NCBI GenBank assembly: GCA_030141605.1
Contig: JAQGDQ010000079.1
Location: 62,001 to 126,000, forward strand
Origin: Tubiluchus corallicola
Lineage: Eukaryota > Animalia > Priapulida
Length of the DNA stretch: 64,000 nt
Reading direction: 5' to 3'
Below, in pieces: positions 13,201-19,200 of the stretch. The notes beneath the pieces are model-generated. The model made no database searches. It was not told the DNA's origin and was given only the letters and a program-made list of their open reading frames with translations. The position numbers were made by a program, and so were the translations under genes. Numbering within the stretch: position 1 is the first letter of the stretch; each line of letters starts with the position of its first letter.

Positions 13201-16200
13201 CTAATTTATACAGCTTGTAGACTTAATTTAAATATTAAATGCTCACAATAATAATTTTACTAAAAGTTATTTGAGTTGAAGTAAATTATGCATTTATAGT
13301 GATTTCGATTTCGCGTAATTTTTGTCTTATTGCGCAAACAAAATATTTTTATTGTTTACGATTCCATTCACGGTAAACAAAAACATTGCGCACAAAGTAC
13401 ATAAATGTCGTGGTAGTTGATATCCTTAAGAAAAATATGATATCAATTTATTTTGTTTATTAGGTATACACAATGCCTGAATATCTTAGAAAAAGATTCG
13501 GAGGGCAGCGGATACGAGTCTACTTGTCAGTTCTCGCTATTCTGCTGTCAGTTTTTACAAAAATATCAGTAAGTATATATTATGTTGACTTGTTTTCAAA
13601 TTTTATGCCCTTTTTGATACCAAAGAACGTCATTAGGCCTACCATTCTAATGATATATCCTCACCGTATAGCAATATTAGAAAACGTAATTACAAAGAAC
13701 TGTTATAATTATAGTGTATAGCTGAAAACCATTATAATTATAATTAATGAATATTGAGAACGTGTCAATTTAAAATGAAACTATACAACAATGTTAAGTG
13801 ATTCGTCTTTTAACTTGCAATATTATTAGTCTCACTCTTTTTTATATCAAATGTCTCACAGACATATTTTATATGAGAAGCCATGGGATACCTTAGTCGT
13901 TTCTTCTAATTACTAGCAGAAGCCATGAAGCCATTTATACACTACCTGTATTCTTTGTGGAATAATTACCTGTATTATACGAGATTATTACCCAGAGCTA
14001 TAAGCGTATCAGGTTAATTTTAAAAGGCTCTCATCAGAAACGTAAGTGGATGCAAACTGGGTGTGTATATAGAATAGAACACTCAGTGTACGATTAAATG
14101 TATTAAACGACTAAAAGCTTTAAGTGGCATTTACGTAGCATCCGGATGCTAAACGCCACTTTAAACGCATAGCAACGTTTAAGGCTTTTAAATCTCAATG
14201 AAATCCTTGCATTTTCTAAGTACATTAACTATACCAGCTGCACTATTGTAGACGTAAGGAAGCCTCGACAATTGTATGGAATGTATATATCTAGATAGAT
14301 AGACAGAATGTTAGATAGAAGGTTAAGACCGTTCCTACGATAAGCTTCTATTCACATAACAGATGATAGACAACCCGACACAATTAAAGATGTTCAAAAT
14401 GTTCAAATCATTTGAAAACCTTACTTCAGTGATTAACATCGCAATACAAAATTTAATGTAATTCAGCAAAACGATTGGCTAGATTAAAAGACTACGTTAT
14501 CGAGGTTAGAAAATAAAACTAATCTCACCAGTGTTGCCTAAATATATGATTAGGCCTACGCTAAATTTTGCTAGCCGTCGAATATACATTTCATAACAAA
14601 GTTTTGAAGTTGCACAAAGTAGAAAAATATAAAAAATAGTTTCTTTGTTTAAACAGGTAGATTTGTATGCCGGTGCAATATTTATTGAACAGTCTCTGAA
14701 GTGGAATGTTTACGCATCTACGGCCATATTGTTATTTGTTGCTGCTCTGTTTACAATCACAGGTATGTAAAATTAGGAAAAAACTACTAGATATAAGAAT
14801 ATAATTACGCAATCTAGGCCATTTATAATCATGTTATATACTTGTAAATGTGTTAGTTGTGTCAATGGCATTCTCGTTGCAATTTGGTCACATGATGTTC
14901 TTATAATAATTGTGCTGTAACGCTATACATAAAACGCCGGCAAATTGATTCTGGCATTCTGTGCGGTAAGTTTCCTAGCTTGGCGAAAATTGACAGGTTC
15001 GAATCTGAGGCTTAATATTAAAGTTATTTTAAGCTCGAGATTGGAGAGAAAGAGAGAGAATGAGAGAGAGCAAAAACAGAAAGAAAAAAGAGAGATAAAC
15101 ACACACACACACACACACGCAAAGAGAGAGAGAGAAAGATAGAGTCATGGTATAGGATAGGATAACAAATTTTAAATTTAATTTTTTTAAATTAAATAAT
15201 ATCGGAAATTTTCCAGGCGGTTTGACGGCTGTGATCTGGACTGATACCTTACAAACAGTTATTATGGTTATCGGGGCTTTTGCTCTCATGATATTAGGTA
15301 TGTATGTATGGCTTCGTGCAATCGTTATAACATTGTGAATTGTAATCATATGTAATTTTTTTTCTGGAACATGACATTGATCAGATAGCTTTACCGCAAA
15401 AAGTCAAAAACTGTACGTCTGATCACTTGTTAAGCATTACCAACAGGAAAAGAATTAACGGGTCCGTTGGCCATAATTTTGCAGTAGCTTACATGTTCGT
15501 TTGCCCAATACAGTGCCAAGGGTGTCCCATGTGAAATATTACCATCATTGTTTAGATACGTTTTGCAAAACGTTTTTGTATAGTATGGTGTAAAGTGGAA
15601 GCCTGCTTTCATTTCCAGGACCATTTCTAATTGACCGTGAGTCAGTGATCTGGATCTTGATTTCCGTGAGTCATGTAGGCTTGTATCATTGTTGTACGTT
15701 TTGTTTATGGGCCCTTTCAACTGTAGGCCTACCTGTTAACGCTAACCCAAAATTTACACACTTGTGTTTTGAAGATGATTGTTTAGAGTTCCTAAAGCCG
15801 CTTACAGGCTTCATGCGTATGTTGAGGCATACTTTGAAAATTAATTACAGTGATTTTTTGCAATTTCATGCAGCATTTTCAAGTGTGGGTGGTTACAGTA
15901 TAATTGGGTATGAGTACGAACATGCCATACCCAATACAACAGTTTACTCTGGTCCAGAACAACAATGCGGTTTTCCTAGTGATTATGCAATGAATTTTTT
16001 TCGCCCATTAAATGATGAAGAACTCCCATGGTTGGGAATGATATTTGGAATCACGATTATGTCTGTTTGGTACTGGTGCACCGACCAGGTATTTTAGATA
16101 TAGTTTGTTTAGTGCTGTGAATGGCTTCCTCAATACATAATATGAAAAACAACACAACTTGAACATTAATAACAATATTAGTGAATGTTCAAAAATTTAA

Positions 16201-19200
16201 CCTTAGGTAACAAAGTGAGTATTTTCAATTAGCAATCCGTTTTTTTAGTTTTAATATTTTTCCCACTCTGTAAGCTATTTTTATAATTCATATTTGGTTA
16301 CGAAAAAGTTCGCCAAAAATTCGATTTTACATTGTAAAATTTTAGCTTGTCTATTGGCAAATTTTACAATTCAAATAATTTGTTGTATTGTTACGAGCGT
16401 TTTCAGTATACGTATTTACAATGTGTCTCAACTTCAAGGTGTACGATACAATACCATATGACAAATGGAGACAAGAGTAAAAAAATATTTACTTTACTTC
16501 GCTACTTTTTCATTATTGTCTATTGCTTATTTGTCAAAAAAAACCTCACAAAAAATAAATTAGTGGAATGTTTGTGTAAAAGAAAAATTACTAAATCAAT
16601 TCAGATGCAAATCCGCGAACGTGACCATGTTTATACATGACTATGTCTGTCCAGTGTTATTATGTCATGTCTATACCTGTAGATTGTTACACTCAAGTAT
16701 GACTAATCCGTGTGTACAGTGCTTGTGACTTATTGTCACTTGATTATACCTGGTCCACAATGGTTTACTCACGCACGACTAAGCAGTTTGCACTTTTGTC
16801 ACATTTTGACTCCTATCTCAGCCCCAGAACACAGATAGCTGTTCTTCAAGTTTCGTGATTCTGGGTACTATAGTTTTAGAGTTATTTAATCTTATGCATT
16901 TTGATTCCTATTTGCAGCCCTTAAAGAATCCCTTTAAAAGCCCAAGTACGCATCTACCCCACACACTACCTAAATACTTATGAAAAAAATTTAAATTTAA
17001 CTCAAAATCCCTAGGAGGAGTTGACAATGACAAGCAATGACCTATGACAATCAAAAAACTGAACGATGTACATTGTCCCCTCTGGCCAAGGTTACCTATC
17101 ACCACACCATTTTCAAAACTTCTTCCCTAGGTGTTTGCCTTGCAAGTTTCGTGACCCTATATGTGTACTACAGTTTGGAGTTATTCAATGTTATGACTTG
17201 AACTGACATGTGTTCTGTGTATCCTTGACCCTTTAAACAAGGTCACTGGGCGCCTTACTTTGTTTGTGCCCTTACCCGAGGCGTATGCTCTGCTTTTGAA
17301 TACAAAGCCGTTTACCGTAATTTTTACATTTTGGCTTCTGCCTCGGGCCCTTAAAAACTGGCCACTCTTCAACGTATCGTTTTCAAGGCCTCTGCCATAT
17401 TTGTCTACTTTGCAAATTTCATGGCTTTTTTGTGTACTGCAGTTTTTGAGTTACTCAAAGTTATGACTCGAACTGACTTATGTCCTGTGTGTCCTGGATC
17501 GTTTGACCGTGATCACTGTTCACCACACCTTTGTCTATCTCTTATTCTGAACATATACCCTACGAGTTTCGTGATCCTAGCCCTTTACATCTGAGTGACA
17601 AAGAAATTTGCCCTCATTTTCACATTTTGGTCCTCGTCAAGAATCCCAGTTTTTTTAAACGCGGGTACACATCCGCCCTACAATACCTAAATACTTTTGA
17701 AAAAAAAATTAGCTGAAAGGAGGAGTTGAATGGCAACCGAAAAACTGGCCCATGTTCAGCGTCCTTGATCCTTTGACCGAAGTCACCGTTTACCATACCA
17801 CTTTCAAGGTCCTACGATAAATGTCGACACTGAGTGTTCCGTAGTCCTCTACATTTGCGAGTTAACATAATGGATGCCTAACACAATGATGATGATGAAA
17901 AAGTCAGCGTACTTCACGCTCACAGATAAAAATACACAAAACTCAATAAACGATTTTTTATATTTTAAAATTGATGAAACAGATTCTAACTAAGCACAGA
18001 AATGGCACAGAAAAACGCACAAAAAATACACAGAATTCCTAAATTGTCACTGATAACAGGTATGTAACAGAGAAACAAACCTGCCTACAGTGCTAACAAA
18101 TAGAACTGATGGAATATAGAACAAAATTTACTTATGCATTTTCTTATTCTTAAGATACTGGCTTTTATTAGAAATTAGGAATTTCTGTGCGTGTCAGCTG
18201 CTTTTGTTGTATACCAATGTATTTTGTTGCTATTTAGTGATTCTAATTTTGTGTTGTATTGTAATTTTTCTATGACTGCTTATGAAAAAATGTCGCGTTT
18301 CGATTGCATATTGTCCAATACGTTCATTTTTCTTGTGCTTTTCGTGGATTAATCTTATCAGCTTTGCACTCTAAAGCTCAAAAATCAAGCGCTTTCACTA
18401 ATAACGTTGACCTGTAAGCTGAGGCTTTTTTAGTAGCTAAAAAGTTTAGAATAGTATGTTCGCAGTTTGCCTTTGTAGCTTGCAGTTTTGATTATATTCA
18501 CTGCAGTTTGTTTAATATTAATTTAATTTCAAATTCAGCGTTAAGTTCATAATAGCAAAATGAGTTAGTTTCCTTCACACATTCTCACATTTTTATGTGA
18601 TTGATTTACAGCATATTTCAAACCACGCGGAATCAAGTCTTTTTCGCTCTCTTGTGTTTTTTTCCGTAAATAGAATCCATACCCGAGGACGACCTCGTAA
18701 TTTTTGCAATACCGCTGTGTTATCTGTTGTCTTTTAAAGAATCTATGTGCTTGAACGTATTTATTTGGCTTCTTTTGATTAGCATTTGTTGAAGTGGAAG
18801 GCTATCAAGCGACCATAGACCAATTTTTCCATGCCATTCCAAACACAACATTATACGGTAACACGACATGTGGCATTCCACCTGCAAATTCAATGAGTTT
18901 GGTGCGGCCAGCATCTGATGATCAGTTTCCCTGGCCAGGGGTGTTCATCGGATTAACTATAAGTTCAGTGTGGTACTGGTGTTCTGATCAGGTATTCAAG
19001 GGATTTCAACTATTTTTTTTCATTTCTATTCACAGAATATTTTTAATTTGTCGAGCAAAAATAAGTTTGATCAAATCTTGAGCTTGATGAACTCTTACAC
19101 TTCAGGTCAGAAAGTTTTTACACATGCAACCCTCCGTAATATACAAATTTAATTAAATTTTAAAGTTACAGCCGCTAATAAAGGATACATTATATTTTAG

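Follow-up and report, generated by a model that had tools for sequence, protein, structure and literature searches.

The 64,000-nucleotide stretch of the genome of the priapulid Tubiluchus corallicola analysed here (contig JAQGDQ010000079.1, positions 62,001 to 126,000; hereafter the window) contains on its + strand, at 7251-26530, a gene of the SGLT type (family SLC5), in which exon 8 is present as a tandem pair of copies, 8a and 8b. We propose that this old pair is probably spliced in a one-or-other fashion, so that a single gene would give rise to two cotransporters (657 and 655 aa) that differ only in the outer loop and in the outer half of transmembrane helix 6 (TM6). Leaving aside the splicing of 8a in this species, mutually exclusive use is well supported, because the logic of the reading frame, selection on both copies, an assembled protein (P0001) that has 8b alone, and pairs of isoforms from four other species that differ in exon 8 only all point to it.

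The gene has 16 coding exons, every one with AG/GT ends (Table 1). P0001, a transcript-type protein of 654 aa assembled from a 4795-base contig, agrees with the 8b model in 590 of 619 aligned residues (~95% identity), carries 8b as its one copy of exon 8, scores 431 bits against the Pfam family SSF (PF00474; curated cut-off 22.8), and matches human SGLT1 (7wmv) over its whole length with an E-value of 6e-219. All the sugar-site residues of SGLT proteins (N78, H83, E102, Y290, W291, K321 and Q457; human SGLT1 numbering throughout) are present in the alignment to 7wmv; these, together with the equivalents of T460, C255 and C511, are shared with human SGLT1 and SGLT2 (SLC5A1/2; PDB 7wmv, 7sl8, 7vsi), whereas position 287 is Ser rather than the Thr of human SGLT1, and the equivalents of C517 and C522 are absent. 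Outside exon 8, the gene is placed beside a protein of Priapulus caudatus (SH-aLRT 92), its nearest named relative (73% identical), in an ecdysozoan group (95) that adjoins a lophotrochozoan group (96). Judged by these similarities, the gene is a member of the SGLT branch of SLC5, and sodium-coupled sugar transport is predicted for its products.

An earlier, sequence-only reading of the window had described exon 8 as present twice, as stop-free copies of 215 and 209 nt with canonical splice sites and the same 1/0 phase, and our analysis recovers the same coordinates and ends. The identity estimated there by hand at about 34/72 amino acids is 33 of 71 aligned residues when computed, and tblastn matches one copy to the other with an E-value of about 1e-19. 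The frame remains open only if a single copy is used (657 aa with 8a alone, 655 aa with 8b alone): inclusion of both leads to a stop at codon 296 and skipping of both to a stop at codon 222, 1077 and 875 nt upstream of the last junction, respectively, which agrees with the claim that neither combination gives a protein and with the early-stop read-outs on which it was based. Also correct were the counts of sequons (one in 8a, two in 8b) and the retention of the loop Cys in both copies with one Cys partner in exon 13, which we identify as the equivalents of C255 and C511. Neither a third copy of exon 8 nor any other duplicated exon was found by tblastn and profile searches of all six frames of the window.

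Comparison of the sequences suggests that purifying selection has preserved 8a as well as 8b. In 69 codon pairs of 8a and 8b, the synonymous difference pS is 0.79 (saturated) and the nonsynonymous difference pN is 0.34, with 28, 19 and 43 differences at the first, second and third codon positions; the 300 nt flanking the copies on either side align no better than shuffled sequences. Since synonymous sites are saturated and the flanks have no alignable similarity, the duplication must be old. Among the columns that are conserved in at least 90% of 140 homologues, 8a retains 16 of 16, as against 18 of 55 among the other columns (Fisher p 7e-7); the corresponding figures for 8b are 14 of 16 and 31 of 53. 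An independent DNA run (X1) provides contigs over the acceptor region of 8a and over the whole of 8b. In the contig over 18085-19018, the differences that are listed (23 of 44) all lie before 18569; in the contig over 15748-15942, those listed (5 of 8) all lie at 15778-15811 and thus leave the acceptor and the first 38 bases of the exon free. This pattern lends weak support to constraint on both copies.

Pairing of this exon extends to other animals. A screen for pairs that differ in exon 8 only, covering 550 within-cluster pairs in 27 multi-member clusters (the three largest represented by 15 listed members each), flagged nine pairs, of which eight come from four clusters. The ninth, a pair of isoforms of the abalone Haliotis rufescens taken as an exon-8 pair in our first tree, was dropped; these isoforms differ across the whole N-terminal half. 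Each of the four clusters contains two proteins of one species whose exon-8 blocks differ by 29-35 substitutions and which are otherwise the same. The species are the shrimp Penaeus chinensis (XP_047494953/XP_047494961), the crabs Portunus trituberculatus (XP_045128405/XP_045128408) and Scylla paramamosain (KAK8406835/XP_063842439), and the nemertean Tubulanus polymorphus (XP_074640671/XP_074640673). In all four pairs the differing block begins at or just past the split codon and finishes before the end of the exon; in Tubulanus the split codon itself differs. An all-against-all screen of 253 proteins of at least 450 aa (from a set of 417) yielded seven pairs, each from those same four clusters, and a gene model of the snow crab Chionoecetes opilio has two copies of exon 8 head to tail. 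Outside exon 8, the paired genes of decapods and nemertean form one orthology group with the gene described here and follow the species tree; the pairs thus share with it both the orthology group and the exon, and their copies are 39-59% identical to 8a or 8b. The exon of the Penaeus X4 isoform (P0171) does not group with the second copy of the crabs (P0082, P0256, P0046), to which it is 56-58% identical, compared with 72-73% elsewhere, and therefore decapods may have three copies of exon 8. Three further proteins (P0044, P0056 and P0015) were considered as carriers of tandem exon 8 and rejected, since their two matches are 250-540 residues apart and they look like fused gene models.

Two aspects of this comparison speak against our interpretation: the isoform pairs of decapods and nemertean are models from automatic annotation, and 23 of the 27 clusters, from molluscs, chelicerates, Daphnia, amphioxus, starfish and vertebrates, have no pair among the members listed that differs in exon 8 only, so that a single ancient origin would need many losses. 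As a separate observation, pairs of SGLT-like proteins whose sole difference is a homologous block at the C-terminus were found in Lingula (P0004/P0005), Tachypleus (P0175/P0176), Littorina (P0024/P0130) and cuttlefish (P0239/P0241), suggesting duplicated alternative terminal exons in this family.

The age of the duplication was assessed with a main exon tree (43 rows, 70 columns) and a separate, quick tree of 123 rows. 8b groups with the exon of the Priapulus orthologue (96/87) and more loosely with those of Tubulanus X1, Lingula, scallop and Capitella (90/91); 8a groups with P0053, a protein of the lophotrochozoan type (100/85). A sister relationship of 8a and 8b is rejected (approximately unbiased (AU) test, p 9e-5; on regrafting, the difference in log-likelihood (delta lnL) is 23, with p-values of about 3e-4 in the AU and 0.006 in the Kishino-Hasegawa (KH) test), as is the grouping of the two Tubulanus copies (p-AU 0.001). 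The position of the gene beside the Priapulus orthologue is not rejected in any of eight control windows of 70 columns, but it is rejected with 8a (KH 0.029). Similarly, Lineus beside Tubulanus is not rejected in any of the eight control windows, but Lineus beside Tubulanus X1 costs 36 log units in exon 8; there, the exon of this nemertean groups with its counterpart in the nematomorph Gordionus (100/98), in conflict with the remainder of the protein, a pairing rejected in six of the eight control windows. Among control tests of a near-true pair, one of 24 was rejected. The trees are less decisive in other respects: the conflict of exon 8 over the whole tree (delta lnL 68) is not exceptional compared with control windows (35-69), 8a has a long branch, and out of 81 placements of 8a as many as 30 survive the test, among them one at the base of the 8b group and one next to a second Priapulus paralogue.

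According to the exon trees, then, a recent local duplication is rejected, and we consider it very probable that the duplication is older than the split from Priapulus caudatus. For a single protostome origin of the exon-8 copies the chances appear evenly balanced. It is a tentative and rather doubtful extension to suppose that an ancestral protostome SGLT gene had a cassette of at least two exon-8 copies setting different sugar preferences, which would still be alternatively spliced in priapulid-like worms, decapods and nemerteans and would have been reduced to one copy in molluscs, chelicerates and others. What hints at it is the grouping of 8b with the exons of Tubulanus X1, the brachiopod and the scallop, together with that of the Lineus exon with the one of Gordionus. 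A cassette of protostome age would be more than 550 million years old. Precedents exist both ways: the duplicated exclusive exon pair of Ca-alpha1T/cca-1, an ion channel as opposed to the sugar carrier considered here, is common to ecdysozoans and molluscs and absent from chordates, and the same source holds that most shared exclusive-exon events arose by convergence (PMC9741552).

Several results weigh against the use of both copies and would fit a history in which 8a is a former alternative exon, recently silenced, so that only the 8b protein is made today. 8a was not found in RNA or protein of this lineage, where the sole related protein, P0001, has 8b; the orthologue in Priapulus caudatus has a single annotated protein, which is also of the 8b type; and the closest sequence to 8a out of 1.84 billion representatives is 53-60% identical. 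A word-index search with 8a gave no match, and a search of metagenome contigs gave no relative (88 pattern matches, none confirmed). Run X2, which we took to be RNA by guess (about 90-95% alike), contains the spliced joints of exons 5-6 and 10-11 and loose ends that fit the starts of exons 7 and 12; it has no cover of exons 7-9 at 80% likeness and hence is no evidence either way. 8a has a long branch in the trees and carries M286, a residue seen in none of the 140 homologues. On the other side stand the intact frame of 8a, its 16 near-invariant positions, its two intact splice sites, which look as strong as those of 8b or of the constitutive exons, and, as a weak argument, the differences listed in the X1 contig, which spare its acceptor and first exon bases. 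In simulations of neutral decay, the frame and splice sites survived in 46% of runs at 0.05 changes per site, in 7% at 0.2 and in 0.3% at 0.5, without counting indels; this excludes a long neutral decay of 8a and is compatible with a very recent loss. We regard silencing of 8a as unlikely.

That 8a is an assembly artefact, or debris of a neighbouring paralogue brought in from another gene or haplotype, is far less probable. It could be argued from the facts that 8a is not the sister of 8b, that the trees allow it a position next to the second Priapulus paralogue (AU 0.11), and that the link between 8a and 8b comes from the assembly; but no further exon or flanking intron is duplicated, the window contains no N, the independent DNA run includes the acceptor region of 8a and the whole of 8b, and four other species also have this exon in two versions. 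The mis-assembly of two paralogues, which the sequence-only reading had named as its possible undoing, thus appears unlikely. Least probable of all is the inclusion of both copies in one protein through an alternative splice site. One ab initio crab model (P0046) does include both copies in frame, but in the gene described here canonical double inclusion shifts the frame, P0001 holds one copy, and of the two in-frame alternative acceptors at 18700-18991 one leads into a stop and the other (18926, inside 8b) adds just a second TM6, which would invert the helices downstream.

As to how one-or-other splicing of 8a and 8b might be enforced, we considered several known mechanisms. Simple steric exclusion, which requires that no more than about 50 nt separate the first donor from the second branch point, is unlikely here because the intron of 2694 nt is too long. 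U2/U12 incompatibility, where one copy is flanked by splice sites of the minor class, was rejected: both donors are ordinary GT of the same type, and the minor-class branch motif occurs only at 17222 and 17762, inside a repeat and more than 1 kb from the 8b acceptor. In Dscam-type clusters, complementary intronic elements (docking site and selectors) pair in competition. No RNA structure of a kind that could enforce exclusivity was detected, the best duplex being within the range of 12 shuffles in all six region pairs, although short elements could escape such a search, and this counts against our proposal; nor does the intron between the copies contain a strong inverted repeat. The mechanism that remains would be a regulated choice of acceptor combined with the decay of both frameshifted products. 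Exon 7 would be joined to the acceptor favoured by the splicing factors of a given tissue or stage, and the products of double inclusion and of skipping would be removed by nonsense-mediated decay, a logic stated for SLC12A1 in PMC8373072. The intron between 8a and 8b has, at about 16800-17870, a degenerate repeat with a period of about 270 nt; contigs accumulate on it, many from X1 and some from X2, and therefore it is likely a dispersed repeat.

The functional consequences of the swap can be considered with reference to human SGLT1, to residues 223-295 of which both 8a and 8b align. In solved human structures, T287 and W291 are the residues that hold the hydroxyls of the sugar, the inner gate consists of Y290 and D294, M283 and L286 touch the C5 substituent on the sugar ring of an inhibitor, and L274 touches the tail of the inhibitor (PMC9616851); M283 also helps to close the outer gate (PMC10203128), and C255-C511 is a disulfide (PMC4854415). 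The copies are identical at 287 (Ser), 290 and 291, and differ at 274 (L in 8a, F in 8b), 277 (L/P), 283 (I/L), 286 (M/S) and 293 (T/S); the other sugar contacts fall in exons common to both isoforms. The second sequon of 8b, which 8a lacks, aligns with N248, presumably the glycan site of human SGLT1. The case for a "swappable vestibule/specificity module", as the sequence-only reading put it, is therefore weaker than was proposed there: what differs is the outer loop, the glycan sites and the pocket-lining positions 274, 283 and 286, and the direct sugar contacts 287, 290 and 291 do not. As the residues that contact hydroxyls are the same in 8a and 8b, tuning is likelier than a switch of sugar class, and the likeliest effect of the swap would be on affinity, gating, or trafficking and glycosylation: the hexose-type site would be common to both proteins, and positions 274, 283 and 286 and the loop may set them apart in affinity, gating, response to inhibitors or glycosylation.

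A change of sugar class, with the exclusive isoforms carrying, for instance, hexose on the one hand and mannose, fructose or inositol on the other, would depart from our interpretation in the functional step only and seems possible but on balance improbable. Position 287 helps to set the sugar choice in human SGLT4 (PMC12605011) and is occupied by different residues in the two copies of each of the five other species in the comparison, and the differences at 283 and 286 lie beside the C5 substituent. However, position 287 varies freely among the 140 homologues (S in 78, A in 54, G in 8), so that two copies would be expected to differ there in about half of all cases, and it is identical in the two copies here, as are 290 and 291, with the remaining contacts in shared exons.

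Mutually exclusive duplicated exons are known in other carriers, and the case in SLC5 is apparently undescribed. Homologous tandem exons that encode part of the transport path and cause a frameshift and decay if joined occur in SLC12A1/NKCC2 (exon 4 A/B/F), SLC7A2, SLC25A3 and SLC39A14 (PMC8373072), and the NKCC2 isoforms differ in ion affinity (PMC6873903). These carriers have other folds or belong to other families, and their duplications are vertebrate events shown experimentally, whereas the present one is in SLC5, in invertebrates, and known from sequence. We found no report of exclusive exon-8 copies in any SLC5 gene in the full-text literature searched, which is the literature outside subscription papers. 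The human lists of duplicated exclusive exons contain no SLC5A entry in the supplements searched (PMC8373072, PMC5740500), and "SLC5A" and "SLC5" are absent from the texts and supplements searched of PMC8373072 and PMC9741552, of which the latter's Drosophila and nematode tables are possibly incomplete. The sequence-only reading knew of no such arrangement in SLC5 genes; it is present, apparently undescribed, in the automatic annotation of decapods and a nemertean.

Table 1. Exons of the SGLT-type gene and the intron between the two copies of exon 8 (positions in the window; residues in human SGLT1 numbering)
Feature	Position	Strand	Remarks
Coding exon 1	7251..7358	+	Start codon at 7251; agrees with N-terminus of P0001
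Exon 2	11348..11419	+	
Exon 3	11718..11822	+	Carries equivalents of N78 and H83
Exon 4	12106..12165	+	
Exon 5	13464..13568	+	Joint 13568>14657 found in a contig of run X2
Exon 6	14657..14762	+	
Exon 7	15217..15297	+	Phase-1 donor common to 8a and 8b
Exon 8a	15874..16088	+	215 nt, phase 1/0; outer loop (1 sequon, loop Cys), then TM6 with I283, M286, S287, Y290, W291; splicing-in not observed
Intron between 8a and 8b	16089..18782	+	2694 nt; contains degenerate repeat
Exon 8b	18783..18991	+	209 nt, phase 1/0; outer loop (2 sequons, loop Cys), then TM6 with L283, S286, S287, Y290, W291; alone in P0001
Exon 9	19650..19785	+	Phase-0 acceptor common to 8a and 8b
Exon 10	20426..20533	+	
Exon 11	20716..20866	+	
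Exon 12	21850..22018	+	Equivalents of Q457 and T460
Exon 13	23281..23419	+	Single Cys, aligned to C511
Exon 14	23799..23875	+	
Exon 15	24848..24971	+	
Exon 16	26313..26530	+	Coding part up to stop codon

Elsewhere in the window, two tandem genes resembling those for fatty-acid-binding proteins lie on the - strand at about 28885-39303, with four exons each that are about 78-85% alike (self-blast) and a Pfam lipocalin match in three of the four exon frames scanned. A tandem duplicate of about 540 nt (32422-33510; 89% identical, GC-richer than its surroundings) is located between exons of one such gene. An open frame of 163 codons (40445-40933, - strand), with a coiled-coil-like start and a Cys/His-rich end, has no Pfam match, and neither has a frame of 139 codons at 30240-30656 on the + strand, which we take to resemble the tail of a retroelement reverse-transcriptase gene.

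The diversity of SLC5 is usually seen as one of whole-gene paralogues. In the present case it is a single exon, the one for the sugar-binding helix, a gate residue and the outer loop tied by the disulfide, that has been doubled, and this in no fewer than three invertebrate lineages that are far apart. For exclusive exons of membrane transporters, this is a further example with which to ask whether they are ancient or convergent. Each isoform pair provides natural chimeras that share an identical background, so that the effect of this segment on affinity, selectivity and inhibitor binding becomes directly testable; if the protostome cassette is true, the pairs would be ready-made natural single-exon swaps of the vestibule and TM6 of SGLT. 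With respect to sugar uptake in farmed crabs and shrimp, expression work at the level of the gene would merge both isoforms.

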